This document shows, piece after piece, positions 1-40,608 of a DNA stretch of 40,608 nt. The notes under the pieces were generated by a model. That model did no database searches, was not told the origin of the DNA, and was given only the letters and a program-made list of their open reading frames with translations. Position 1 is the stretch's first letter, and every line of letters starts with the position of its first letter. The DNA comes from a phage, in sequence record OZ370878.1. One strand, 5' to 3'. A program made the translations under genes and the position numbers.

Positions 1-137
1 GTAACACCCAAAGACAAACCCAAGGGTCATCCCCAACCCTTAGGGAACCCTCAAGGTCAACCGAAGGTTGACTTTAGGTGATTGGCTGGGCTTTAGGTAC
101 CCCCTATGGGGGAACTTTAGGTCCGTACACTGTGAGA
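1..137. repeat. Partial copy of T7 160-bp terminal repeat (reverse complement, bases 24-160)
   Basis: Identical to 40319..40455; matches remembered T7 terminal repeat sequence. Confidence 0.9.
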
Positions 138-376
138 TAGTCACTCAGATTTTTATGGTATATTTTAAAGGACCCTATAGGAACTCCATAGGCCCTCTCT
201 AAGACCCTCTTTAGGTGACACTGATAGGATGGCCTATCTTTAGGTATAGACCTTAGGATAGACCATTAGAGGCTCTTTATGGGTATACCTTAGGACTTGA
301 CTCTATAGGGATGAAGTGGTGTGATGCAATCATACCGCTGAATCCCTCGGTGAGCCATCAGTCGGTCAGGAAGACC

Positions 377-526
377 CTAATCGCTACAAGTGAGTATAGA
401 GCAAACGACAGACTCCAGTGAACTGAGGTCTCCAGTAAGAGATGCGTACCCAAGGGCAGCACAAAGTACCACAAGAAATCGGTAGGTGACTCTATGCCGC
501 AGTAGGTTCAACAATAAGCGGAACAT
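377..526 (-). CDS. 19.5: T7 gp19.5, unknown function
   Basis: 49-aa ORF MFRLLLNLLRHRVTYRF... read by hand from minus strand; below ORF-track size cutoff. Confidence 0.85.
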   Translation of the reverse strand: MFRLLLNLLRHRVTYRFLVVLCAALGYASLTGDLSSLESVVCSILTCSD

Positions 527-680
527 GAGTCTCCTCCCTTTATGTTGGTCCTTAAGTTAAGGTGATACTAATACAATATAATCACCATTCTTAGAGGTCA
601 CTCTAGGTACACCATTATGCATACTTTATGCACTCTATAAGTATTCATTCAGTATCTATATAGTAACCTTTCGTCCCTCC

Positions 681-703
681 TCTCCCTATAGTGAGTCGTA
701 TTA
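681..703 (-). promoter_or_regulatory. T7 RNAP promoter phiOR
   Basis: Reverse complement of TAATACGACTCACTATAGGGAGA. Confidence 0.9.
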
Positions 704-784
704 ATTTATCGTGTCTTTTCAGTAACTTAAAGAACTGACCATCCGTGGTCTATAGTGCATCCCTATGCAGTCCTAATGCATAAA

Positions 785-2545
785 TCACCACTCAATGAAA
801 GACGTACCGTAACCCTCATCGTCCTCAGAGTACACATCAACTCCTCCCACAGACATCTCAATGATATGCGTAGCAGCAACCGTAGGACGCATCATGTGTT
901 CCTCAAGGAAGTCAGCAAGTACTTCACCCTCGACCTTAACGGAATCCAACTGCATGGACTCACGGAGATACTCAATGCCTAACGCAAGGGCATCCAATCG
1001 GTCATCATGAGCCAGAGCGCCTTTCTCACGAGTGATACGGGTCATCTGGTAGAACAACGAGTACTTAACGTCATGCTTACCGTCTACGTCACGAGCGGAC
1101 TGGTAGTCGGCCCTAATGACCTCATCACGAATTACAAGGCGGTGAGTCTGCATGACTGGCTCAAGGGTATCGCAAATACGCATCTCTTTCATACCACGGG
1201 CACGAATCTCTTCCATCGCACAGTTGTGGTGTTTAAGAAGGATAGGACTGAATACCTTACCGAACATACCGTCACCGAAGTTACTCTCGTAGACAACCGT
1301 CTGGACTCCCCATTGCTTTGCCTTCTTAGCGAGTAACTCAAGGGTCTTATCGGAGTAGCCATCACGGAAACCTCCAGCTTCCATAAGGTAGATGTAACCG
1401 TTCAGTGTGTACAGCACAGCGTAACCTGTTTCGTCCTTACCGCGACCACTAGGGTCAATGACCAGAATCTTCTGTTGGTACTGACCTGAGTTGTTGGAAC
1501 AATCGTGGTACGTATGCAGGTCATCACCCTTAAGGCCAACGTTAGGAAGGTCCTCAATGATGTTCTGACGGTTCGGAAGCCACTGGTAATGCATTGGGGC
1601 CTTCTCTAAGTCTAAGGCCGCTACGATAGCGTCACGAAGCCTCAGCGGGTACTTCTCGGCATCACTAAGGTTAGGGTTAAGCATGAACTGTAGCGTAAAG
1701 CCAGCCTTACCGTATTCCAACTCACGCTCGCGCAGGTCATCACGGTCAAAGCGCACTGGGTCTGTTGGAGTCCCAGCAAGTGCCTCAGGGTTCTCATCGT
1801 ACTCAGCGCGTAACATAGGAGCAAGACGCTGTGAGTAATAGAGGTTCTCTTCACGTGTCCTTGGGTACAGAGCAGGCCAGATAATGGTTGTGTACCCACG
1901 GTTATCCTCAAGTTCCTTATAGAGAGTCATCTCTGTCTGAGGTGTACCAAGGTAGATAACGCGAGAGGAAGGCAGCGGTTTAAGTAACGCAGCGAACTCC
2001 TGAACCAGAGTCCATAGCTTCTCACGGGCACCCATAGTTGCGCTGTTAGACGGAATCTCAACGTCATCCGCAATGATAATGTCAGCACGGCTACCAGTTA
2101 ACTGACCAGTGATACCTACTGATTTCACACTAGGAGAGTGGTCAGGATTGGCTGGGCCTACATCAAAGCTGATTACCGAGTCACGCTGTCCGGGTCTTGG
2201 CTTTAACTCAGATAGGAATGGCAGCAGGTCAATGATGTTCTTAATAAAGATGGAGTTAGCGTCTGCACGCTCCTTAGAGGCTGATACGATAAGTATCTTC
2301 AACTGAGGGTCTCTCCATAAGGACCACACAACGAACGCACATGTGATGAACGACTTACCGATACCACGGAAAGCCTGTAAGATGAACTTCTTGTTGTCTC
2401 CATTCGCCAGCACCTTAGCCATGTCAATCTGACACTTAGTGGGCACCGGTAGGTTTAGCGCCTTCCATAAGACGAATAGGAACGCCACGAAGTCTCCTTT
2501 CAGTTGCGCCACTACGAGCGCATTACGATTGGATTGAGTAGACAC
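785..2545 (-). CDS. 19: T7 gp19 terminase large subunit
   Basis: 586-aa ORF; GTG start after AAGGAGG; matches T7 gp19. Confidence 0.95.
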
Positions 2546-2566
2546 ATTGCCTCCTTACTTGATTTC

Positions 2567-2998
2567 CTACTTACGTTGCAGTTCACGAATAGTATCCTGT
2601 AACGCACGAATCCATGCGTCACCCTTCTGGGTCACTGCGAGAATACGTTTAGCATCTCGGTCGTCAAGTTCGGCTCGACCATCAGGCTCGAATCCACACT
2701 GACCATCGGAGGTTCCGGTAGTTTTGACTCTGACGCGCAACCGCTTATTGTCGCTACGCAAATCAGAAATAATCCTATCAGTGCTCCCTTCCAGCGCGGC
2801 AAGGTCTTCTTGATACTTAGCAGATACCGCATCGATTGCTCTTTGAGTGCTCTTCGCAGCCTCAACTCTCTTAACGTACTCATTGTGTACCTCCTGTTTC
2901 CATTTAGCGTCCATTGAGTCTGACCCTAGATGCCATCCTAACCCGAATAGCATCCCAGCGAGAACCCAAGGGATTAGCTTACGTAAAAATTCTAGCAT
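2567..2998 (-). CDS. 18.5: T7 gp18.5 Rz-like i-spanin
   Basis: 143-aa ORF with N-terminal TM segment; T7 gp18.5. Confidence 0.9.
   Translation of the reverse strand: MLEFLRKLIPWVLAGMLFGLGWHLGSDSMDAKWKQEVHNEYVKRVEAAKSTQRAIDAVSAKYQEDLAALEGSTDRIISDLRSDNKRLRVRVKTTGTSDGQCGFEPDGRAELDDRDAKRILAVTQKGDAWIRALQDTIRELQRK
2632..2883 (-). CDS. 18.7: T7 gp18.7 Rz1-like o-spanin, nested in 18.5 in another frame
   Basis: 83-aa ORF fully inside gene 18.5; T7 gp18.7. Confidence 0.8.
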   Translation of the reverse strand: MSTLRELRLRRALKEQSMRYLLSIKKTLPRWKGALIGLFLICVATISGCASESKLPEPPMVSVDSSLMVEPNLTTEMLNVFSQ

Positions 2999-3039
2999 AA
3001 TGCCTCCCGTTAACTTTCAGATTTCACGTAGGAGCATCT

Positions 3040-3095
3040 CGTATAGACAATGACATCCATAAAGACCACTATCTGTAGTGGCCTTGAGTATATCA
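3040..3095 (-). promoter_or_regulatory. RNase III processing site R18.5
   Basis: Hairpin motif ACTCAAGGCCACT...GTGGTCTTTATGGATG shared with other T7 R sites. Confidence 0.55.
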
Positions 3096-3362
3096 CTGTA
3101 ATGTGTAAATATCATCATCCGTAAGACCGTTATCACCGACTTTCTCTTTGTACTCTTCAAGAGCACCAGCAAGGCCACCTAAGATGTGAACATCCGGCTG
3201 CAACTTACCAATCTGGAACTTGTGGCGGTCTAACAGTTTGTTAATAGCATTATAGAGTTGCGGAGAGCGACGCTCATGGTCCGAAAGGTCCGCAAGCATA
3301 CGCTGAGCCATCGCAGTGTCCAACATCTCTAAGAATGTAATAAGGCTCTTATCCTTTTCCAT
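3093..3362 (-). CDS. 18: T7 gp18 terminase small subunit
   Basis: 89 aa from MEKDKSLITF...; ORF-track start trimmed to canonical ATG. Confidence 0.92.
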   Translation of the reverse strand: MEKDKSLITFLEMLDTAMAQRMLADLSDHERRSPQLYNAINKLLDRHKFQIGKLQPDVHILGGLAGALEEYKEKVGDNGLTDDDIYTLQ

Positions 3363-3367
3363 ACATA

Positions 3368-3571
3368 TCACTCCTTATTGGCTTTCTTCCAGTCAATCAT
3401 CTTATCGACTACCTTGGCACCAATCTGAACCACTGTGTAGGCGATAGCAGCAACGTAGAACCATTCGTTAAGGCTTAACCCAAAGAACAGTCGAGCACTA
3501 ACATCTGCTACACCCGTCCCAACAATTGGAGCAGCCTTAATCAATTCGTTGTTAAAGTCTAATGATAGCAC
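3368..3571 (-). CDS. 17.5: T7 gp17.5 holin
   Basis: 67-aa ORF with hydrophobic segment; T7 gp17.5. Confidence 0.9.
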   Translation of the reverse strand: MLSLDFNNELIKAAPIVGTGVADVSARLFFGLSLNEWFYVAAIAYTVVQIGAKVVDKMIDWKKANKE

Positions 3572-3629
3572 CTTGTACCTCCTTGAGAGTCCATCCGTGG
3601 ACTACACGTCTTTCCTTGTGATTTACCAA

Positions 3630-5291
3630 TTACTCGTTCTCCACCATGATTGCATTAGGTACAGAACGTCTGTCTGCAATATTCTTGAATCCGAGACCGT
3701 TGGAGTGTATTTGGAATCGTAACCATCCACCATCAGAGGCTATGAAGTAGATTCCATCGGGGCCAGTACGGAAGAAGTTCCAAGAGTTGTTGGCACACTT
3801 AATCCAGATATTGCGGAAGCGGAGATCCTGTGAAACAGTCACACTTACCCCACCGCCAGCACTACCAGACCACACCTGAGTCCACGCCTTGGACTTCGCA
3901 ACGAAGCTGTCACGTAGGTAAGCATCCAGCCATTTACCTCCCCACTTAGTACCTTGAATATTACCATCAGTGGCCACAACGGCCTGACCTACGTGGAAGT
4001 GTTTGTTAACTACTGCATAGTCCTGCTTGAGTGTTAAGGTCGTACCATGTACATAGGAGTGGAAGGTACAGTCATTGTTGTTATCTGACCCTCTACCAAT
4101 GTACCAGTTATTCCTGTTACCATCTTTAGATAGAATATAGTGCGCCTTGTCGGATGCGGACTCTAATTGAAGAACATGCCCATTCTGCAATTTTAGCTGA
4201 CCGGTCATGGCTCCACCTTGGGTGATGATCTGTCCGTTTACTACTAACTGGATGTTACCGCCTATCGCTGTTGTCCACTCTCTACGTTGAACATACATCA
4301 GCCATCCGTTCTCATCTCCCCACTCCATGACAGAGTAACGATTAGTGACACCACCAAAGAACTGTTGATACTGGCCACAGTCAAAACCGTTTGTGGTCAT
4401 GTAAAGGCGCCCGTTAGCGTGAATATTTCCTTTCCAGTACACATTGGTTCCATCTACCTTATCAATTGCACCAGCCAATCCATTGTAATTTTCCAGCTTG
4501 TCTGCCTCACGTTCCGCACGGTCTGCTTGCTGTTCTGCCAAATGAGCAGAGTTAGCGGATGCTGTGGCAGAGTTCTCAGCGTTTACCTCAGATTGATGCG
4601 CAGCGGAAGCAGAGTTCCCAGCAGATGTAGCGTATTGACCAGCCGTATTCTTGAACCGCTTGGCTTCGTCTCGGAAACCCTTGGTCTCATCGCGCCACTG
4701 CTTTGTGTTCGTAGCGTTGGTACTGGACTCGTTCTTAAAGCCCTCCGCTTGGTTTCTGAAAGTCTCAGCCTCATTACGGAACTGTAAGGCTTCATTACGT
4801 GCTTGCCATGAGTTCTGGTTCATGGTCTTTAGTTGACCAAACGGAACAGCATCGCGGTCATCCACGGCGTTCGCTAGGTTCACAATTCGACGACCACGAG
4901 CATCCAAGTGACCATCGTTATTGACACCGATAGTATCCGTAGTGAGGTCACGGGCCTCTTCCGCTACGTGCATCGTTTGAATCTGAGCGACGTTAAGGTC
5001 ATACGCGCGGAGGATTGAACCATCCGTAAAGTCAACCAATCGGTCGGTAGTGGAGGTTACTCGGCGTAACTCGATGGTCGTGTAGCCATCGGCTGGACCC
5101 CAAGCCTTTGTCAGAGAGATAGTAGTACGTGTAGCAAAGCGATAGTCTGTATTAATCGTAAGGACCTTTCGGTCTACACCAATAAGAGTTACCACTACGA
5201 ACTTACGGGCTAGATACTCAAACGGGATATTAAAATCACGATTGGAGCCATCTAACTGGTAAGTCAAAACGGTTTTAATTACGTTAGCCAT
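3630..5291 (-). CDS. 17: T7 gp17 tail fiber
   Basis: 553-aa ORF; matches T7 gp17. Confidence 0.95.
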   Translation of the reverse strand: MANVIKTVLTYQLDGSNRDFNIPFEYLARKFVVVTLIGVDRKVLTINTDYRFATRTTISLTKAWGPADGYTTIELRRVTSTTDRLVDFTDGSILRAYDLNVAQIQTMHVAEEARDLTTDTIGVNNDGHLDARGRRIVNLANAVDDRDAVPFGQLKTMNQNSWQARNEALQFRNEAETFRNQAEGFKNESSTNATNTKQWRDETKGFRDEAKRFKNTAGQYATSAGNSASAAHQSEVNAENSATASANSAHLAEQQADRAEREADKLENYNGLAGAIDKVDGTNVYWKGNIHANGRLYMTTNGFDCGQYQQFFGGVTNRYSVMEWGDENGWLMYVQRREWTTAIGGNIQLVVNGQIITQGGAMTGQLKLQNGHVLQLESASDKAHYILSKDGNRNNWYIGRGSDNNNDCTFHSYVHGTTLTLKQDYAVVNKHFHVGQAVVATDGNIQGTKWGGKWLDAYLRDSFVAKSKAWTQVWSGSAGGGVSVTVSQDLRFRNIWIKCANNSWNFFRTGPDGIYFIASDGGWLRFQIHSNGLGFKNIADRRSVPNAIMVENE

Positions 5292-5343
5292 TTGACCTCC
5301 TTAAAGTAAATCTAAGAGACTACAGGGAGAAGATTATTTCGCC

Positions 5344-5366
5344 TCTCCCTATAGTGAGTCGTATTA
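5344..5366 (-). promoter_or_regulatory. T7 RNAP promoter phi17
   Basis: Reverse complement of TAATACGACTCACTATAGGGAGA; overlaps gene 16 stop. Confidence 0.9.
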
Positions 5367-8300
5367 TTTCCTACGCTCCCTCAAGTTAACACCGTTCGCC
5401 TCATAAATCTTCAACACAAGCTGTTGAGTCAATGGGTCGTTCGGTACTAACTCTTTTGTGGAGTTCATAAGACCAGTCATGAAGTCCTGCTCGGTTGCTT
5501 TATTAGGTGAGTTGACCACGCCAGCAGCATTCATTAAGGTAGCCCCTACGTTAGCCACAAAGCCAGCCGAAGGCATCTGTTCCAGAAGGTTTGAACCCAT
5601 AGCGCCCATTACCTCTCTAGAGGTGTACGGTTTGTTTGGGTCACGTTCCTTCACGGTGTCCTTAGGTAGAATCGTAGAGCGAGCCATCTTGGAGGACTCG
5701 AACCCTAAAACACCACCAACTAGGTCAACCATAGCCAAAGGAGCACCCAATTGAGAACTACGAGATAACGCAGCGTGGGCAATCATGGTTGGGTCCAGTG
5801 CACGCTCCAAGTACTCCTTACGTTTCTCCTTAGGCAGAGCGTATGCTTTGACGTGTGCAGCCATAGCATAGAAACCACCAGCGAGACCCATAGAGGTGAT
5901 GATGCTCAGCGCAGCGTCAATCGCTCGGTTGTTCTTGTATCCATCATAGAAGGTTCGCAGGAACTTAGAGTTAAGGGACTTGATAGTGAAAGACTTAAAC
6001 TGCATAACCATCTTACCTAGTGCTCCGAACGCATGGGAATCCTGTAAGGACACCTTATGTGGACGCAGCATTGCCTCATCAGCTACCTTGTCAGCCAGTC
6101 TCCATAAGTCCATAGCCCGTGGGTCCATAGAGAACGCTTGCTTGTCCTTAACGGTAAACTTCCCGTCCTCACCGCGTACCATATGTTCCTTGATGAGAGA
6201 CTTGATGCCAGCCATCTGCTCAGGAGTTACGGAGGCACCACGAAGGAAGCCTTCTTTCTCCCAGCGGGTAGTCTTACCTGTTAGGGTGGCACTAATAACA
6301 TCCCCAAGCATACCTTGACGCGCAGCATCCAGAAGGTAGTTAGTGGTTCCGTTCAGTAGCTTAGTCCACGGAGAGCGAGCAGCCAGTTCCTGTGTTGAAT
6401 ACTTCAAGGTCCCTACGATGTTCGCCACGGCAGGTCCGGTATCAGTTGCTTCCCTTAGGCGCTGCACAATGTCAGCACGTTTAGGCCGAATCAACTGGTC
6501 CACCTCCTTCCCGAACAGAGACGCATGGAGTTCCTTGAGTTCCTTAGCTGAAACTGGTTTAGACTTGTAGAGTGTATCACGCAGAATTGGGATACTATGC
6601 CCTAGAGCACGAACGTTACCAGTGACAATCATCCCAGCAATCTCCGTAATGTTCTGAGCACCCATGTAGGCGTTCTTAGCGAAGAACCCTAGGTCATTGA
6701 TGGCACGCAGTGAGGTTTCCCACACAGTGTCCTGATTGCGTCTAGCACGACCAGTAAGAATCTTAACGGTATCCATTAAAGCATGTACCTCGCCAGTCTT
6801 CTTACCGTCTCCCTCAGCTTTCGCTTTGAGAGCCAAAATCTCATCCTTAAGTTCCTTAGTGGTTTTACCAGTAGACCCCATGATGGCGATGTCACCATTG
6901 ACACGGCGGTCATACGCTGGCATGATGCGGAACATATCGAAGTCCCTTAGGTCATTCACTGAGAATTGCTGTCCGTCTGGCATAGTGATGGATAGGTCCG
7001 AATCAAACAAGTTACGTGCCTCAAGGAATGAGTTATTCTCGATACCTACTAAGCCCTCAATGTTCTCTTCTATTATGGAACTGTTGGTGAACTGGTCTGA
7101 GTGGGAGATACCATAAGCCTTATCCATAGCGTACTTCTCTACCATCTCTGGTGTTACTTCCTTCACCCCGTGTAATTCCTTAAGCATCTCATCGACTCTG
7201 GCCTTGACCTCAGGTCTGGAGACGTAGCTGTTCATCCATGAGCGGGCAATCCCTTCCTGCAAACCTTCGGCACCGTAGCGTTGAATCATCAGCGCCTTGG
7301 CATGACGGTCATATACGTGAGGAACGTAAGTACCTTTGTGGCGACTCTCAGGGAAGATACTCACAGCCTTTGTGTTACCGAATATTGCTGGGTTTTCCAT
7401 AAGTTCACGCTTGGTGTCAAAGTGACGCTTAATGATGTCCATAACGATTCTCTCAGACGGAGTGAGTGCCTTCTGTAGTTCTGGACGCTCAATAGCTAGT
7501 GCCGCTCTACGGTAGATAGTGTATCGAGTTTCTTCACGGGACATCTTAGCGCCGCCAGTAGAGAACTCAGGGTCTTTCATAGCGTCAGACATTGCTTTGT
7601 ACAAGTCATTATAAGTACGCTGGTCAGTACCATGAAGTCTCTCATGGATGTCAGAAGCTGTTGCACCGAACTTACCTGAGGCACCAGACTGCATACCAGT
7701 AGGAGAGCGAACGAGGTCGATAGCCACTCTACGGATGTCAGCATCGTCAGACCCCAAGGTCTTCAAGCCAATCTCGGTGAACCCAGCCAGTTTGATTCCT
7801 CGCGCAGCCTTCTCAGGGTCAACCTCGGAGAACTCTTTTAGAGTCTTAGGGTTGATTGGGTTGCTTGCACTTAGAACGGAGCCATCATGTAACACCACGG
7901 CACCTCTCTCTGTTGGTAAGTCCTCATAAGGGACACCATTATGTTCACCTTCAAACTTCATGTTCTCAGTGTTCATCCGAGAGAGGTCCGCAGAGTTGGC
8001 GTTTCGTGCTGTCTCACGGGCTTCCAATCGCATCATAGGACCGATGAACTCATTGTCGAACTCAGCTTCTGGTTTACTGCGTTTCAGTCCAGCAGCTACA
8101 GCGTCACTGATTGCAGACATGCCTGCGCCAAACACAAAGCCACCTAAGGCAGCACCCGCATAGTCTGCGTCACCACCAGCTACGGAGGTACGGAGACCTT
8201 CGGATGCAACGTTCAGAGCAGCACTTTCGGCACCAACTACAAGAGCCTTATTGATTAACTTAAAGCCCTTACCAGTGACACCGACCATAGGAACATAGCT

Positions 8301-9320
8301 AAGCGGGTCCACACCAGCACCAATAATACCAGCACTCAGTTTGGCACCTAGGCCAGCCTCGGCAGCGCGGGAGTCATTCTCAAAGTTCTCGTTAGCCAAT
8401 TTAATGAGGTCATCGAGGTTCTCAGGGGAACCACCAGTTACAACGTTGATGTACGCAGGGTTCTTAACCTCTGTTCGAATCTTCTCTAACTCCTCTGGAG
8501 TCCAGATGTGAGAGTTCCAGCGAGTCGGCGTAATGGTGTCTTTAAACACATCAAAACCATTATCGAGACGACCAGCACGGAAAGCCATCCCAGCGACTGA
8601 GTTGGAGAGTTCAGCTTCGGCAGCATTTTTGAATCCGAAGAAGGTTGAACGACTGTTGTACTCGTCAAGTGTTTCTCCGTGGGTCTCCCAAAAGTCCTTG
8701 GCGAATGGTTTCGCCGTAGCCTCCTGTTCGATACCCTTAACGTCAAAACTTGTGGACTCAGGAAGTTCCTGTGTTACTTTCTGCTTGTGACCAATTCCAG
8801 CCAATCCTACCTCAGCCGGAATGCCTTTACCCTTTGGGGTTATGCCACCAAAAGTTTCCAACTGTCCAGCCATAGGTGACTTAGCAACATCCAGAAGGTT
8901 ACGCATGTAGTTACGTCCCTCCTCAGAGATTGATGCGAAGTCTCCCTTAGAGTACGCCTCAAGTTGTGGATTACCCAAGCGTCCCTCGCCTTGGTTGTAC
9001 GCAAGGGCAGCTTTGAGTTCATCGCCATCAAACTTCCCTACCAGACCTGCAAGTTGCTTAGCGGCAGCATTAATAGCTAACTCAGGGTTCAGTCGGTCGT
9101 CGTCTGGACCATCGGTAACTCGCAGACCGAGGGCCTTAGCGGTTGCCTTGGTAAATTGCATCATGCCTAATGGTCCAGTCTTAGATTTTGCTGTAGGCAC
9201 AAATCGTGATTCTGTCCAAGCGACTTTACGTAAAAGGTCATAAGAGACCCCGTTGGCATCAGCAGCCTTTTGGAACAGACCATCATAATCACTTGGTACG
9301 TTCTTATCGTACTTATCCAT
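5364..9320 (-). CDS. 16: T7 gp16 internal virion protein D with N-terminal lytic transglycosylase domain
   Basis: 1318-aa ORF; SLT-like motif GMMQFTKATAKALGL near N-terminus. Confidence 0.95.
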   Translation of the reverse strand: MDKYDKNVPSDYDGLFQKAADANGVSYDLLRKVAWTESRFVPTAKSKTGPLGMMQFTKATAKALGLRVTDGPDDDRLNPELAINAAAKQLAGLVGKFDGDELKAALAYNQGEGRLGNPQLEAYSKGDFASISEEGRNYMRNLLDVAKSPMAGQLETFGGITPKGKGIPAEVGLAGIGHKQKVTQELPESTSFDVKGIEQEATAKPFAKDFWETHGETLDEYNSRSTFFGFKNAAEAELSNSVAGMAFRAGRLDNGFDVFKDTITPTRWNSHIWTPEELEKIRTEVKNPAYINVVTGGSPENLDDLIKLANENFENDSRAAEAGLGAKLSAGIIGAGVDPLSYVPMVGVTGKGFKLINKALVVGAESAALNVASEGLRTSVAGGDADYAGAALGGFVFGAGMSAISDAVAAGLKRSKPEAEFDNEFIGPMMRLEARETARNANSADLSRMNTENMKFEGEHNGVPYEDLPTERGAVVLHDGSVLSASNPINPKTLKEFSEVDPEKAARGIKLAGFTEIGLKTLGSDDADIRRVAIDLVRSPTGMQSGASGKFGATASDIHERLHGTDQRTYNDLYKAMSDAMKDPEFSTGGAKMSREETRYTIYRRAALAIERPELQKALTPSERIVMDIIKRHFDTKRELMENPAIFGNTKAVSIFPESRHKGTYVPHVYDRHAKALMIQRYGAEGLQEGIARSWMNSYVSRPEVKARVDEMLKELHGVKEVTPEMVEKYAMDKAYGISHSDQFTNSSIIEENIEGLVGIENNSFLEARNLFDSDLSITMPDGQQFSVNDLRDFDMFRIMPAYDRRVNGDIAIMGSTGKTTKELKDEILALKAKAEGDGKKTGEVHALMDTVKILTGRARRNQDTVWETSLRAINDLGFFAKNAYMGAQNITEIAGMIVTGNVRALGHSIPILRDTLYKSKPVSAKELKELHASLFGKEVDQLIRPKRADIVQRLREATDTGPAVANIVGTLKYSTQELAARSPWTKLLNGTTNYLLDAARQGMLGDVISATLTGKTTRWEKEGFLRGASVTPEQMAGIKSLIKEHMVRGEDGKFTVKDKQAFSMDPRAMDLWRLADKVADEAMLRPHKVSLQDSHAFGALGKMVMQFKSFTIKSLNSKFLRTFYDGYKNNRAIDAALSIITSMGLAGGFYAMAAHVKAYALPKEKRKEYLERALDPTMIAHAALSRSSQLGAPLAMVDLVGGVLGFESSKMARSTILPKDTVKERDPNKPYTSREVMGAMGSNLLEQMPSAGFVANVGATLMNAAGVVNSPNKATEQDFMTGLMNSTKELVPNDPLTQQLVLKIYEANGVNLRERRK

Positions 9321-9346: not shown

Positions 9347-11590
9347 TTACTCCTTACGTCCGTAGATGAACTTAGGAGTCTGTTTACGTTTCTCTCGGAC
9401 TCGTTTAGCAGCAGCTTCACGGGCCTTCGTAGCGGCAACTATAGGTGCTCGCTTGTTCACATCAGCCAGAGCCTTCTCACGAGCTTTCTCTTCGAGTTTC
9501 TTCTGGTTCTCACTCCAGACCTTCGAGAGTAACTCTTTGTCGTATCGGACTCTGACTTGACCTGTGGTGTCCATAAGGTAAATGGAGTCACCTTGAGAAT
9601 ACATGGTCAGTTGCTTATTGGTTATCCAAGGGTTGCTCGCAATGATTCCCTTACGTGCTTCCTCCAGAATATCCCGACCTTGCTCCCATGATTTCGGGTC
9701 AGAGTTAACCTGCATCATATTCTTAGGAATCACACCAACGGTATCACCGTCAACATCATCACCAGTGAACGTGTAGGTAGATTCCTTAAGGAACTTGGTC
9801 ATCTGCTCCATAGCCATGCTTTCGTTCCCCGAGCGATACTTAACGGAGTCATAAATCTTACGTGCAGATTCGCGCAGTGACGCTGGCATACGGGCAATCT
9901 CAGGAGCCTTAGATGCATTCAGTGCAGACTCGAATGCTTTATCATCCTCAAAGCGTTGCTCTTTGGACCGCTTAACAGTCAGTCGGTCGGCATCAAGAAT
10001 AACCTGAGGGTCAATACCCTGCTTGTCCATCATGTCCATCGTCAGGAATAGCTCAGCTTGGTCTGGGTATAGCGCAGCAATCAACTGAGGGTCAGCATTG
10101 CGGATTCTGCGCAGAGCATCCATAGCTGGGGTTCGTTCTGGTAACTTACCGTTAATCACAGCGGCAGACCACTCTTGACCAGCGTCAGTGACCATGGTTC
10201 CGATGGCTGTACGGAATGCTCCGTCCTTAGAGTCCGCTTGAAGGTACTTCAACTTCATAGCATCCTTGGCACCGTCTGGAATGTCCATACTGTCAATCTC
10301 AGCGAGCTTCTTATTGGCGTAGTTAACCATATCGCTATGCTTGAACTCACCAGTGTTCTCGTTGACTGGCATATCCTTAAAATCCGTTGAGACCCACTCA
10401 CCGTTGATTCGCTTCTGGAATTGCTTGTCGATTACGTCAAGTTTGTTCATTGACTTCATGGAATCGTCCAGAGCCTTGGCCTGAGCTTTCGTCCATGCGT
10501 TCATCTGATTCTGAACTTGTTCCTGTGCGGAGATTAGCCACTCACGTTGTGGTGTCATCTGCTCATCAGGTTGGACCTTATCTAGTTCAGCCTTGATACC
10601 TTGAAGCATCTCCCAAGCTGTCCTTGGGTCCTCTTGGTTCAGCGCAGAGTTAATCTTCAAGCGATACTGCTCGTTCAGCTTCGCGTCAGTCTCAAACTGA
10701 GAACGTTGTGCTGTGACCATGAGAGCGTTCCACTGTTCCTCACCAATCAACTCTCGGTAAGTCGTAGTGGCTCCGTTAAGTGTTACCTTCTTGTCACCGA
10801 CTCGCATCAGGAAGTCAGCACCACCAGCACGGCTAGAAGCGTCACTGAACGCTTGGCTTATAAGCTGTGTGGCTTGAGCATCAGATGGGATTGCGCCAGT
10901 AACCAGACCGTTGTCGATATACTTCTCAAAGAAGTCAGCAGAGTCTGGACGACGCAGCATATCAGGGTCTTGAAGGACACCGTTGAGTTCCACTCGGCTG
11001 TTCATGATAGCGCCCTTCTGAGCTTGCTGGCTCAAGAAGTTATCATGCGCACCATACAGCGAGATGTTACGCTCGGTAATGTCCCCGTTGAAACCACGCT
11101 GATAATCAACGTCCTCAGGGTCGATGCCGAACTGCTCAGCGTATACCTTAGCGCCCTCTTGAAGGCGACTATGGCGATACTCTTCCATCTCTTCGCGAGT
11201 ACGGAAGACACCCTCTTTTATCTTCTGCATAACGTCATCGTCCACAAGATACGCAGCGTTACGACCAGTCTTGACTCGGAGTGCTTCCATAGCGTATGGG
11301 TCATCCTGATACAGAAGGGTCCCGTTGTTGAGAGCTTCTCGACGTTGCTCAGGGGTCAGCTTACGGATAATCTCGTTAGAGCGTTCATCAGCTAGGTCTC
11401 GTGCTCGTTGTTCCTTAGCGGTATACATATCGGCACCAGCCTTAGCGAACCGACCAATGGTGTCCAATAGGCTTGACCTTGGCTGTTCGGCCTGAGTGGT
11501 TGCTGAACGATAGCCCATACCTCCAGCACCACCACGTAACCGAGAGAGTCCCGGTTGTGCCGCTTGAAGGGCAGATTCAATTTTACTCAT
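9347..11590 (-). CDS. 15: T7 gp15 internal virion protein C
   Basis: 747-aa ORF; matches T7 gp15. Confidence 0.95.
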   Translation of the reverse strand: MSKIESALQAAQPGLSRLRGGAGGMGYRSATTQAEQPRSSLLDTIGRFAKAGADMYTAKEQRARDLADERSNEIIRKLTPEQRREALNNGTLLYQDDPYAMEALRVKTGRNAAYLVDDDVMQKIKEGVFRTREEMEEYRHSRLQEGAKVYAEQFGIDPEDVDYQRGFNGDITERNISLYGAHDNFLSQQAQKGAIMNSRVELNGVLQDPDMLRRPDSADFFEKYIDNGLVTGAIPSDAQATQLISQAFSDASSRAGGADFLMRVGDKKVTLNGATTTYRELIGEEQWNALMVTAQRSQFETDAKLNEQYRLKINSALNQEDPRTAWEMLQGIKAELDKVQPDEQMTPQREWLISAQEQVQNQMNAWTKAQAKALDDSMKSMNKLDVIDKQFQKRINGEWVSTDFKDMPVNENTGEFKHSDMVNYANKKLAEIDSMDIPDGAKDAMKLKYLQADSKDGAFRTAIGTMVTDAGQEWSAAVINGKLPERTPAMDALRRIRNADPQLIAALYPDQAELFLTMDMMDKQGIDPQVILDADRLTVKRSKEQRFEDDKAFESALNASKAPEIARMPASLRESARKIYDSVKYRSGNESMAMEQMTKFLKESTYTFTGDDVDGDTVGVIPKNMMQVNSDPKSWEQGRDILEEARKGIIASNPWITNKQLTMYSQGDSIYLMDTTGQVRVRYDKELLSKVWSENQKKLEEKAREKALADVNKRAPIVAATKAREAAAKRVREKRKQTPKFIYGRKE

Positions 11591-15755: not shown

Positions 15756-16453
<698 letters not shown>

Positions 16454-17563
16454 TTATGTAATCCCAGCAGCATTTACGTACTCATGAAGGACCATGTGGT
16501 CACGAGAATTCGGATCCCCGAGCATCACACCTGACTGGAATACGACAGCTCCTGCAGCTTCTGGGCGAAGACCACCGTGGCCCATTGCGTACTTAGCGAT
16601 AATCTGGTCCGCTTGGAAGTTAGCACGGCGAGCGCGCTCCAGAGCCAAGTCACGCAGCTTAACAGTACCTACCGCGGAGCGGTGCATGAACAGGCCGATA
16701 ACGTTGTCCTTAGCAACCTTGACATTACCCTCACCTTTATTGGCAGGGAAGACGTGCTTCTGACCAGTAGTGCCCTCACGAGCGGTACCAGCACCACCAG
16801 CGGTGAGGTGCGGAACTTCTACAACCTCAAAGCCCATAACGTTGCGGATAGAACCCTTCTCAGGGTCAATCAGAGCAGCGTAGTTTGCTGCGTTCGGCAT
16901 CAGTGCTGCCAGAATCGCAGAGTAGCTATCTGGGTCACAGTAGAACACACGGTCAGCAGCCGGAACATAGTTCTTGGTCAGAGCCGCACGAGCCTTAGTC
17001 AGAGCCGCAATAATCTCCTTACCCAGCGCAACTTGGTCGGTAAGTGCGGCCTTGTTCTGAGTGGTCTCAATTACGGTAGCAGTACCTAAGCCCTCGATGT
17101 TCTCATTATATTTGCTTTCCACGTTACACAGACCGGCAATCTCAGCCAGAACCGCACCATCCGCAGCCATCGCCAGAGATTCACCCAACTGAGAGGTATA
17201 CTCAGAGCGAACGTCGTAGTGGTTCATCGCGTCCTCAATATCATAAATCAGAACGTCAGCCGTCAGGAGACCGTCAATGGTGATTACCTTCTCGGTGTGT
17301 TTGATGTCCTTACGTTTATCGTCGAGGTTCTCGCCCGGAGCCAGATACGCTGCCTGAGTGCGACCCAGAACAGGGAACTGAGCGGATTTACCGCTGGAGA
17401 TGGAACGTACCATGTGGCGAGAAGTGGTCACGGAGGTACGAGCGAACGCAGTCAGGACTTCACCGCCAAATACCTTCAAGAACAACGCCAGTTTATCTCC
17501 AGCAGCAACTACACCTTTACCTTGGTTAGTACCCATTTGCTGTCCACCAGTCATGCTAGCCAT
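16454..17563 (-). CDS. 10: T7 major capsid protein gp10 (residues 1-348, read-through form) fused to GFP11 tag
   Basis: 369-aa ORF MASMTGGQQMG...AAGAVVFQSGVMLG-DPNS-RDHMVLHEYVNAAGIT then TAATAA. Confidence 0.97.
   Translation of the reverse strand: MASMTGGQQMGTNQGKGVVAAGDKLALFLKVFGGEVLTAFARTSVTTSRHMVRSISSGKSAQFPVLGRTQAAYLAPGENLDDKRKDIKHTEKVITIDGLLTADVLIYDIEDAMNHYDVRSEYTSQLGESLAMAADGAVLAEIAGLCNVESKYNENIEGLGTATVIETTQNKAALTDQVALGKEIIAALTKARAALTKNYVPAADRVFYCDPDSYSAILAALMPNAANYAALIDPEKGSIRNVMGFEVVEVPHLTAGGAGTAREGTTGQKHVFPANKGEGNVKVAKDNVIGLFMHRSAVGTVKLRDLALERARRANFQADQIIAKYAMGHGGLRPEAAGAVVFQSGVMLGDPNSRDHMVLHEYVNAAGIT
16457..16504 (-). other. GFP11: GFP11 (M3) tag coding segment, 16 codons RDHMVLHEYVNAAGIT
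   Basis: C-terminal 16 aa of the gp10 fusion match the GFP strand-11 complementation peptide. Confidence 0.95.
16505..16516 (-). other. Cloning scar GGATCCGAATTC (BamHI/EcoRI) encoding DPNS linker
   Basis: Adjacent restriction sites directly after gp10 codon 348. Confidence 0.85.
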
Positions 17564-34394: not shown

Positions 34395-34523
34395 TTACTG
34401 ACCCTCCCAGCTACGCTTGTGAGAGCGGTCACGCTTAGTCTTATTCAACTTGCGACCTTTGGTTGCCTCGAAGTCACGAGCATTACGGTTAGAACGTTTG
34501 GTCATCTTTTCGAAGTTACGCAT
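34395..34523 (-). CDS. 1.1: T7 gp1.1
   Basis: 42-aa basic ORF MRNFEKMTKRSNRNARDF... read by hand. Confidence 0.8.
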   Translation of the reverse strand: MRNFEKMTKRSNRNARDFEATKGRKLNKTKRDRSHKRSWEGQ

Positions 34524-34526
34524 ACT

Positions 34527-34600
34527 TAAAGTCCTCTCTTAGTAATTCTTTAATTTAAATCTCTAATTAACACTTAAGGGTCTTAAAGTTAAACCTTAAG
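34527..34600 (-). other. AT-rich primary replication origin region between phi1.1 and gene 1.1
   Basis: AT-rich tract TTAAGGTTTAACTTTAAGACCCTTAAGTGTTAATTAGAGATTTAAATTAAAG downstream of the phi1.1 promoter. Confidence 0.5.
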
Positions 34601-34627
34601 GTTCTCCTATAGTGAGTCGTATTGATT
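34601..34627 (-). promoter_or_regulatory. Single hybrid T7 RNAP promoter phi1.1A/phi1.1B
   Basis: CGCCAAATCAATACGACTCACTATAGGAGAACCTTAAGG: phi1.1A upstream flank joined to phi1.1B downstream flank. Confidence 0.8.
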
Positions 34628-34632
34628 TGGCG

Positions 34633-37284
34633 TTACGCGAACGCGAAGTCCGACTCTAAGATGTCACGGAGGTTCAAGTTACCTTTAGCCGGAAGTGCTG
34701 GCATTTTGTCCAATTGAGACTCGTGCAACTGGTCAGCGAACTGGTCGTAGAAATCAGCCAGTACATCACAAGACTCATATGTGTCAACCATAGTTTCGCG
34801 CACTGCTTTGAACAGGTTCGCAGCGTCAGCCGGAATGGTACCGAAGGAGTCGTGAATCAGTGCAAAAGATTCGATTCCGTACTTCTCGTGTGCCCACACT
34901 ACAGTCTTACGAAGGTGGCTACCGTCTTGGCTGTGTACAAAGTTAGGAGCGATACCAGACTCCTGTTTGTGTGCATCAATCTCGCTATCTTTGTTGGTGT
35001 TAATGGTAGGCTGTAAGCGGAACTGACCGAGGAACATCAGGTTCAAGCGCGTCTGAATAGGCTTCTTGTATTCCTGCCACACAGGGAAACCATCAGGAGT
35101 TACCCAATGCACAGCGCAACGCTTGCGAAGAATCTCTCCAGTCTTCTTATCTTTGACCTCAGCAGCCAGCAGCTTAGCAGCAGACTTAAGCCAGTTCATT
35201 GCTTCAACCGCAGCTACCACCGTCACGCTCACAGATTCCCAAATCAGCTTAGCCATGTATCCAGCAGCCTGATTCGGCTGAGTGAACATCAGACCCTTGC
35301 CGGAATCAATAGCTGGCTGAATGGTATCTTCCAGCACTTGTTGACGGAAGCCGAACTCTTTGGACCCGTAAGCCAGCGTCATGACTGAACGCTTAGTCAC
35401 ACTGCGAGTAACACCGTAAGCCAGCCATTGACCAGCCAGTGCCTTAGTGCCCAGCTTGACTTTCTCAGAGATTTCACCAGTGTTCTCATCGGTCACGGTA
35501 ACTACTTCGTTATCGGTCCCATTGATTGCGTCTGCTTGTAGAATCTCGTTGACTTTCTTAGCAACAATCCCGTAGATGTCCTGAACGGTTTCACTAGGAA
35601 GCAAGTTAACCGCGCGACCACCTACCTCATCTCGGAGCATCGCGGAGAAGTGCTGGATGCCAGAGCAAGACCCGTCAAACGCCAGCGGAAGGGAGCAGTT
35701 ATAGCTCAGGCCGTGGTGCTGTACCCCAGCGTACTCAAAGCAGAACGCAAGGAAGCAGAACGGAGAATCTTGCTCAGCCCACCAAGTGTTCTCCAGTGGA
35801 GACTTAGCGCAAGCCATGATGTTCTCGTGGTTTTCCTCAATGAACTTGATGCGCTCAGGGAACGGAACCTTATCGACACCCGCACAGTTTGCACCGTGGA
35901 TTTTCAGCCAGTAGTAACCTTCCTTACCGATTGGTTTACCTTTCGCCAGCGTAAGCAGTCCTTTGGTCATATCGTTACCTTGCGGGTTGAACACTGACAC
36001 AGCGTAAACACGACCGCGCCAGTCCATGTTGTAAGGGAACCAGATGGCCTTATGGTTAGCAAACTTATTGGCTTGCTCAAGCATGAACTCAAGGCTGATA
36101 CGGCGAGACTTGCGAGCCTTGTCCTTGCGGTACACAGCAGCGGCAGCACGTTTCCACGCGGTGAGAGCCTCAGGATTCATGTCGATGTCTTCCGGTTTCA
36201 TCGGGAGTTCTTCACGCTCAATCGCAGGGATGTCCTCGACCGGACAATGCTTCCACTTGGTGATTACGTTGGCGACCGCTAGGACTTTCTTGTTGATTTT
36301 CCATGCGGTGTTTTGCGCAATGTTAATCGCTTTGTACACCTCAGGCATGTAAACGTCTTCGTAGCGCATCAGTGCTTTCTTACTGTGAGTACGCACCAGC
36401 GCCAGAGGACGACGACCGTTAGCCCAATAGCCACCACCAGTAATGCCAGTCCACGGCTTAGGAGGAACTACGCAAGGTTGGAACATCGGAGAGATGCCAG
36501 CCAGCGCACCTGCACGGGTTGCGATAGCCTCAGCGTATTCAGGTGCGAGTTCGATAGTCTCAGAGTCTTGACCTACTACGCCAGCATTTTGGCGGTGTAA
36601 GCTAACCATTCCGGTTGACTCAATGAGCATCTCGATGCAGCGTACTCCTACATGAATAGAGTCTTCCTTATGCCACGAAGACCACGCCTCGCCACCGAGT
36701 AGACCCTTAGAGAGCATGTCAGCCTCGACAACTTGCATAAATGCTTTCTTGTAGACGTGCCCTACGCGCTTGTTGAGTTGTTCCTCAACGTTTTTCTTGA
36801 AGTGCTTAGCTTCAAGGTCACGGATACGACCGAAGCGAGCCTCGTCCTCAATGGCCCGACCGATTGCGCTTGCTACAGCCTGAACGGTTGTATTGTCAGC
36901 ACTGGTTAGGCAAGCCAGAGTGGTCTTAATGGTGATGTACGCTACGGCTTCCGGCTTGATTTCTTGCAGGAACTGGAAGGCTGTCGGGCGCTTGCCGCGC
37001 TTAGCTTTCACTTCCTCAAACCAGTCGTTGATGCGTGCAATCATCTTAGGGAGTAGGGTAGTGATGAGAGGCTTGGCGGCAGCGTTATCCGCAACCTCAC
37101 CAGCTTTAAGTTGACGCTCAAACATCTTGCGGAAGCGTGCTTCACCCATCTCGTAAGACTCATGCTCAAGGGCCAACTGTTCGCGAGCTAAACGCTCACC
37201 GTAATGGTCAGCCAGAGTGTTGAACGGGATAGCAGCCAGTTCGATGTCAGAGAAGTCGTTCTTAGCGATGTTAATCGTGTTCAT
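34633..37284 (-). CDS. 1: T7 RNA polymerase gp1
   Basis: 883-aa ORF MNTINIAKNDFSDIELAAIPF...ESDFAFA. Confidence 0.98.
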   Translation of the reverse strand: MNTINIAKNDFSDIELAAIPFNTLADHYGERLAREQLALEHESYEMGEARFRKMFERQLKAGEVADNAAAKPLITTLLPKMIARINDWFEEVKAKRGKRPTAFQFLQEIKPEAVAYITIKTTLACLTSADNTTVQAVASAIGRAIEDEARFGRIRDLEAKHFKKNVEEQLNKRVGHVYKKAFMQVVEADMLSKGLLGGEAWSSWHKEDSIHVGVRCIEMLIESTGMVSLHRQNAGVVGQDSETIELAPEYAEAIATRAGALAGISPMFQPCVVPPKPWTGITGGGYWANGRRPLALVRTHSKKALMRYEDVYMPEVYKAINIAQNTAWKINKKVLAVANVITKWKHCPVEDIPAIEREELPMKPEDIDMNPEALTAWKRAAAAVYRKDKARKSRRISLEFMLEQANKFANHKAIWFPYNMDWRGRVYAVSVFNPQGNDMTKGLLTLAKGKPIGKEGYYWLKIHGANCAGVDKVPFPERIKFIEENHENIMACAKSPLENTWWAEQDSPFCFLAFCFEYAGVQHHGLSYNCSLPLAFDGSCSGIQHFSAMLRDEVGGRAVNLLPSETVQDIYGIVAKKVNEILQADAINGTDNEVVTVTDENTGEISEKVKLGTKALAGQWLAYGVTRSVTKRSVMTLAYGSKEFGFRQQVLEDTIQPAIDSGKGLMFTQPNQAAGYMAKLIWESVSVTVVAAVEAMNWLKSAAKLLAAEVKDKKTGEILRKRCAVHWVTPDGFPVWQEYKKPIQTRLNLMFLGQFRLQPTINTNKDSEIDAHKQESGIAPNFVHSQDGSHLRKTVVWAHEKYGIESFALIHDSFGTIPADAANLFKAVRETMVDTYESCDVLADFYDQFADQLHESQLDKMPALPAKGNLNLRDILESDFAFA

Positions 37285-40295: not shown

Positions 40296-40455
40296 AGGGA
40301 CACAGAGAGACACTCAAGGTAACACCCAAAGACAAACCCAAGGGTCATCCCCAACCCTTAGGGAACCCTCAAGGTCAACCGAAGGTTGACTTTAGGTGAT
40401 TGGCTGGGCTTTAGGTACCCCCTATGGGGGAACTTTAGGTCCGTACACTGTGAGA
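40296..40455. repeat. Full 160-bp T7 terminal repeat (reverse complement)
   Basis: AGGGACACAGAGAGACACTCAAGG...GGTCCGTACACTGTGAGA; its last 137 bp equal window 1..137. Confidence 0.9.
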
Positions 40456-40608
40456 TAGTCACTCAGATTTTTATGGTATATTTTAAAGGACCCTATAGGA
40501 ACTCCATAGGCCCTCTCTAAGACCCTCTTTAGGTGACACTGATAGGATGGCCTATCTTTAGGTATAGACCTTAGGATAGACCATTAGAGGCTCTTTATGG
40601 GTATACCT
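40456..40608. repeat. Wrap-around duplicate of window 138..290 (right-end unique DNA of the next genome unit)
   Basis: Exact identity of 1..290 with 40319..40608. Confidence 0.9.

Follow-up and report, generated by a model that had tools for sequence, protein, structure and literature searches.

Loss of 75 bp between the phi1.1A and phi1.1B promoter repeats leaves a single hybrid promoter between genes 1 and 1.1 of an engineered phage T7 genome

The 40,608-nt stretch of DNA analysed here in full (sequence record OZ370878.1, hereafter the window) represents an engineered phage T7 in reverse-complement orientation; relative to reference T7 (V01146), the region between its gene 1 and gene 1.1 is shorter by exactly 75 bp, as determined by both BLAST and direct alignment. 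The loss comprises one copy of a direct repeat and the 58 nt between the repeats, and leaves one hybrid promoter where the reference carries the tandem promoters phi1.1A and phi1.1B. A first-pass annotation made from the letters of the window had proposed this collapse; the observation is real, and the substantive claims of that interpretation all hold. We consider it highly probable that this was an unplanned deletion, arising through misaligned 17-bp cores of phi1.1A and phi1.1B and fixed by plaque picking in a viable phage. With the window more than 99.9% identical to V01146 from end to end by BLAST, the match in the promoter region is not a chance match. The features of the locus are as follows.

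34633-37284, minus strand: gene 1, T7 RNA polymerase, 883 aa, intact, ending in a TAA stop codon and carrying the private substitution M431V
34625-34632, minus strand: phi1.1A upstream flank, CGCCAAAT, immediately 3' of the gene 1 stop codon
34607-34623, minus strand: 17-bp crossover interval, AATACGACTCACTATAG, the sole surviving copy of the direct repeat, with the breakpoint somewhere inside
34602-34624, minus strand: hybrid T7 RNA polymerase promoter (-17 to +6, 23 nt), CAATACGACTCACTATAGGAGAA, with +1 at 34607
34524-34606, minus strand: region downstream of phi1.1B, 83 nt, 100% identical to T7 5924-6006, 72% A+T
34395-34523, minus strand: gene 1.1, 42 aa, intact, with its ATG at 34523

On the minus strand, window positions 34601-34632 read CGCCAAATCAATACGACTCACTATAGGAGAAC. 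The reference promoters have their +1 positions at 5848 (phi1.1A) and 5923 (phi1.1B) and mismatch each other at -17, +2, +3, +5 and +6, and the exact direct repeat that they share is 17 bp long (-16 to +1), at 5832-5848 and 5907-5923. Read as its reverse complement, the window aligns first to T7 1-5848 and next to T7 from 5907 on, and these two matches overlap by 17 nt with no inserted bases. The junction thus has the form of a direct-repeat deletion, in which one repeat copy is kept, the interval is lost and nothing is inserted. The distance between gene 1 and gene 1.1 is 109 nt in the window against 184 nt in V01146 (5823-6006), in agreement with the roughly 75 bp first described as missing; when reference T7 was checked for a single promoter and a 109-nt spacer of its own, it had two promoters and 184 nt instead. 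The annotation had attributed the loss to recombination between 23-bp promoter repeats. The type of junction is as expected from that account, but the exact repeat is 17 bp rather than 23 bp, and recombination would be indistinguishable here from template switching by the polymerase as the genome was rebuilt by PCR.

A promoter scan using the class III consensus as query, with at most six mismatches and the same threshold for window and reference, returned 15 T7-type promoters in the window and 16 in T7, the sole difference being the gene 1/gene 1.1 locus, where, as first noted, only one remains. This promoter matches the class III consensus TAATACGACTCACTATAGGGAGA at 19 of 23 positions (four mismatches), with the -12 to -5 specificity core intact and a G at +1. 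From -16 to +1 it is identical to both phi1.1A and phi1.1B. Alignment to V01146 assigns the C at -17, which is also found in phi4c, to phi1.1A and the bases from +2 to +6 (GAGAA) to phi1.1B, substantiating the proposed joining of a phi1.1A upstream flank to a phi1.1B downstream flank. Each half of the hybrid is therefore identical to a natural T7 promoter. Judged by its sequence, the element would be classed as a class II T7 RNA polymerase promoter, and as both halves occur in natural T7 promoters, it should be active and recognised by T7 RNA polymerase.

R1.1 is an irregular hairpin of roughly 60 nt encoded between phi1.1A and phi1.1B, and the lost 58 nt between the repeats are those that encode this RNase III site. 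R1.1 is absent from the window, as had been predicted: no copy of its sequence was found across the whole window with up to three mismatches allowed. When folding was compared with shuffled sequence, the wild-type R1.1 segment gave a z-score of -2.53, while the remaining spacer, at -0.80, folded no better than its shuffled counterparts. An Rfam search of the wild-type region returned no R1.1 family, and the absence of R1.1 is accordingly shown by sequence search and folding.

The 83-nt region downstream of the promoter holds the AT-rich element of the primary origin, which had been reported as retained and is indeed unaltered, together with the ribosome-binding site of gene 1.1, and its register to +1 is native. 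The window thus keeps what is expected of the primary origin, namely a promoter directly 5' of an AT-rich region, located some 15% of the way in from the genetic left end and colinear with the reference. The two tandem promoters of the wild-type origin are represented by one only.

Reduced to one promoter and an AT-rich region in native register, the primary origin should, on these sequence grounds, still fire. Work from the Richardson laboratory in the 1980s reportedly found one promoter to be sufficient for origin firing in vitro. T7 replication starts at phi1.1A and phi1.1B, and secondary origins take over when these are deleted (PMC8373140), providing a back-up for the reduced primary origin. 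Early host-polymerase transcripts should be left uncut between gene 1 and gene 1.1, which would join gene 1 to genes 1.1 and 1.2 in a transcript running from R1 to R1.3. Since T7 grows in hosts without RNase III (PMC6938266), no strong phenotype is expected from the loss of R1.1. The phage is viable, and the purification methods in the source paper of T7-Split-S*, the engineered phage to which the window is assigned below, give typical titres of 10^10-10^11 PFU/mL (PMC12808745).

The identical junction was found in exactly one other phage GenBank record, OL964748.1, a mutant T7 clone (T7_1t1) of 37,088 bp, and searches for the exact junction in IMG/VR, JGI metagenome contigs and GTDB genome contigs gave no matches. 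OL964748.1 shares the 65-nt junction sequence, the 17-bp crossover and the loss of 75 bp, but it differs in its independent origin, in its many other deletions and in lacking both the GFP insert and the marker substitutions of the window. Among its deletions, those that remove exactly 100 bp or entire genes show 0 bp of homology at the junction and look designed. A second class of deletions in the same genome has 9-17 bp of homology and comprises losses of 1480 bp (13-bp repeat), 277 bp (9-bp repeat) and 75 bp (the 17-bp promoter repeat). The 1480-bp loss lies at T7 1256/2724, with the 13-bp repeat AGGAAGTCGAGGA, and the 277-bp loss at 11185/11454; a 100-bp deletion at T7 13349/13440 falls at a 10-bp repeat. 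The presence of the identical junction in this unrelated genome indicates that the 75-bp event recurs independently in vivo and is viable.

Both promoters and R1.1 are colinear in 169 of the 191 phage GenBank records that match T7 5800-6010, and records keeping this arrangement extend to about 90% identity, including 13a, phiA1122, YpsP-G and Yersinia enterocolitica phages. Such conservation argues for some value of two promoters and R1.1 in nature; neutrality of the deletion is an assumption on our part. The Teseptimavirus relatives AH67C600_Q5, vB_Yep_9 and PSP2-22 resemble the window in that R1.1 is missing, only one promoter-like element is present and the AT-rich region is conserved. Gene 1 and gene 1.1 are both annotated in two of these records, AH67C600_Q5 and vB_Yep_9, where the spacer separating them measures 105 nt. 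Their lone element, AAATTAATATCACTATAGG, lacks CGAC at -12 to -9, unlike the T7-type promoters elsewhere in AH67C600_Q5, and is, from this sequence, probably not a functional promoter. These short-spacer relatives look like an older natural collapse of the phi1.1A/phi1.1B pair followed by promoter decay. AH67C600_Q5 was considered as a natural single-promoter precedent and can be used as one only with caution, given that four core bases are missing and that most of gene 10 is absent from its record. In that record (MZ833439.1), the major capsid gene is annotated at just 192 nt (approximately 21977-22168), and no class III promoter match is found genome-wide except phiOR. These gaps suggest assembly collapse or large deletions at repeated promoters.

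Compared with T7 as a whole, the window shows two structural differences: the 75-bp deletion in the gene 1/gene 1.1 spacer and a replaced gene 10 end. Leaving aside the engineered gene 10 region, length departs from that of the reference at just two sites in about 40 kb, namely at the deletion and at the known +A at 1896. The window is a circular permutation, its reverse complement beginning at T7 39625, passing through a single 160-bp terminal repeat to T7 position 1, and ending at T7 39914. This permutation, together with the 290-bp duplication of the ends, is the signature of a circularised long-read assembly and not of virion ends. The features that bear on the identity of the genome are listed here in window coordinates.

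1-290 and 40319-40608: duplicated ends, the first 290 bases being identical to the last 290
approximately 40296-40455: terminal repeat in single copy, 160 bp, joining the T7 right end to the left end
15761-16515, minus strand: replacement of the gene 10 end, with a T7Select-like linker (…VMLGDPNS), GFP11, a gene-10-type ribosome-binding site and a GFP1-10 open reading frame
3669, minus strand: gp17 S541R (T7 36246 T>A)
3663, minus strand: silent change in gp17 codon 543, linked to S541R (T7 36252 A>T)
39359, 37552, 35994, 30623, 19545, 18141, 16676, 13488, 13181, 12477, 11506, 6596 and 5064: 13 private substitutions

In the gene 10 fusion, two stop codons come directly after the GFP11 peptide RDHMVLHEYVNAAGIT, and the codons just 5' of the replacement (T7 23977-24009) have been recoded. 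S541R in gp17 is a published mutation that permits T7 to use the truncated RdLPS receptor. Further markers in the window are 1896 +A and 22629 A>G (T7 coordinates), and these two, with S541R and 36252 A>T, are tabulated lineage markers of one laboratory's T7 stock and of its rfaC-adapted tail fibre (PMC10933291, Supplementary Data 3). The phage T7-Split-S* combines a capsid-GFP11 fusion and GFP1-10 with tail-fibre S541R and was assembled from six fragments; its genome was expressed in a cell-free extract, followed by plaque-picking on E. coli rfaC and nanopore sequencing (PMC12808745 and preprint supplement). The gene 10 replacement is the split-GFP label that T7-Split-S* was designed to carry on its capsid, and from this construct and the marker mutations we infer that the window is the genome of T7-Split-S* or of a sibling. 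The 13 private substitutions, those absent from the laboratory's parental and sister genomes, include eight that change proteins (gp0.3 A58V, gp0.7 R295W, T7 RNA polymerase M431V, gp8 C249Y, gp9 I147T, gp12 L529P, gp15 A29S and gp16 G909S); PCR error, adaptation or residual nanopore error may account for the 13 changes.

On the T7-Split-S* assembly map, the left fragment T7A is a 10,680-bp product from T7 WT DNA with primers at the fragment ends (preprint supplement of PMC12808745). The deletion lies about 5.8 kb inside this fragment, and, given this interior position, it was neither designed as an edit nor produced by the misjoining of fragment ends. That the deletion had been inherited from a parental T7 stock or deliberately designed would otherwise have some appeal, as the same laboratory has engineered this region, placing mCherry at 5843 with primers inside phi1.1A and, in another construct, deleting from 5890. 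However, the map specifies plain T7A from wild-type DNA, the junction contains no linker or scar, and the laboratory's mutation table, covering commercial T7 DNA and 27 sequenced derivatives, has no such change, its only entries here being two engineered constructs, the insertion of mCherry at 5843 and the deletion of 5890-8949 (PMC10933291, Supplementary Data 3). PP384400, PP384401, PP384404, PP384407 and PP384410 are likewise wild type across T7 5800-6010. The first-pass annotation had asked whether the parental strain carries the same deletion, and in the DNA and sister phages of the apparent source laboratory it does not. An inherited or designed origin is thus extremely unlikely, and with parental DNA and sister phages wild type, the deletion was not planned and is confined to this clone or its T7A amplicon batch. 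Mis-annealing in exonuclease assembly, a candidate raised by the laboratory's primers inside phi1.1A, was rejected, as T7-Split-S* uses an uncut 10.7-kb T7A fragment at this point.

The reality of the deletion in phage DNA and the role of selection also have to be weighed. If the deletion were an artefact of long-read assembly or consensus calling, the phage DNA would in reality have both promoters; the window is, after all, a circularised assembly with 290 bp repeated at its ends and a single terminal repeat at the join, nanopore sequencing was used (PMC12808745), and the deletion is known here from the consensus alone. Yet the quality of that consensus is high, as the scarcity of length changes outside gene 10 attests, and kilobase reads span the 75-bp interval, at which scale 17-bp repeats do not collapse in assembly. 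The junction is, moreover, exactly what a biological repeat-mediated deletion would give, and it recurs in the independent genome OL964748.1, which together make an artefact very unlikely. A selective advantage, whether for growth on the rfaC host, for growth in cell-free extract or as an offset to the 614-bp net insertion, would be in keeping with the independent appearance of the same allele in OL964748.1, a serially passaged and genome-reduced T7, and with natural relatives that have a 105-nt spacer and no R1.1. Against it, shedding 75 bp brings trivial relief to a genome that exceeds wild-type length by about 1.4%, just one of some 110 T7 records with at least 99% identity at this locus, dozens of passaged mutants among them, has the allele, and the plaque bottleneck alone accounts for fixation. 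We therefore regard selection as having only a slim chance of being the explanation. It is improbable, too, that the phi1.1A/phi1.1B pair is a recurrent deletion hot-spot whose collapse is favoured in laboratory regimes such as cell-free rebooting, truncated-LPS hosts and genome-reduction passaging; if that were true, the second promoter and R1.1 would be costly, beyond being dispensable, outside natural conditions.

Under the favoured explanation of an unplanned deletion between the promoter repeats, the two identical 17-bp cores of the tandem class II promoters would have misaligned, either by copy-choice (template switching) or by single-strand annealing, with the loss of one repeat copy and of the 58 nt encoding the R1.1 hairpin. 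As the phage was plaque-purified after cell-free rebooting, a change seen in the consensus was most likely present in the molecule that founded the plaque, and the deletion most likely predates or coincides with this single-plaque bottleneck. Candidate steps would be the long-range PCR of T7A and the replication of the reassembled genome in the cell-free extract, with plaque picking rather than selection responsible for fixation. The private substitutions, four of which fall inside T7A (gp0.3 A58V, gp0.7 R295W, RNA polymerase M431V and one silent change), fit a genome founded by PCR-amplified molecules. Template switching in long-range PCR, or replication and recombination in the extract, would be favoured over later growth in cells, although one consensus sequence would look the same after a deletion in PCR, in cell-free replication or in growth in E. 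coli. Hairpin-assisted slippage was also considered and found little support, the DNA fold of the repeat-hairpin-repeat segment being weak and no better than shuffled sequence (z = -0.70).

The deletion is real but ordinary, in that all of its components are textbook T7 biology and the identical allele is already public, and it opens no new question. Its main value is in quality control, since the engineered phage serves as a reference reagent and two kinds of departure from the design are present in the deposited genome: a 75-bp regulatory deletion that had gone unreported, and 13 point substitutions, among them M431V in T7 RNA polymerase. The clone demonstrates once more that T7 can do without R1.1 and with one origin promoter in place of two, and it marks the tandem promoter cores as fragile repeats in PCR-based genome rebuilding.

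Compared with wild-type T7 (V01146 5823-6006), the window has identical flanks, the upstream context of phi1.1A, the initial transcribed sequence of phi1.1B, the same 83-nt region and intact genes 1 and 1.1. It differs in having one promoter in place of two, no R1.1-encoding spacer in place of one of 58 nt, and 109 nt in place of 184 nt between the genes. More extensive losses in this region are also known. T7 without gene 1 and phi1.1A forms plaques, smaller than those of wild type, when RNA polymerase is supplied from a plasmid (PMC6171733), and T7-mini (PP384396), deleted for 5890-8949 and hence without phi1.1B and the AT-rich element, is viable. In both cases plaques still form despite promoter loss, which in T7-mini extends to phi1.1B and the AT-rich element. 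Those deletions, however, were designed, are larger and remove genes, whereas the deletion in the window is spontaneous, spares all coding sequence and regenerates an intact promoter. T7 deletions at short direct repeats have been described since the 1970s (Studier et al. 1979; Kong & Masker 1994, as cited in PMC5630979), and the present deletion resembles the classical events cited there in that one short repeat copy is retained and the interval is lost. Unlike those cited examples, the repeat here is a functional promoter core, and its collapse has produced a chimeric promoter that, from its sequence, looks functional.
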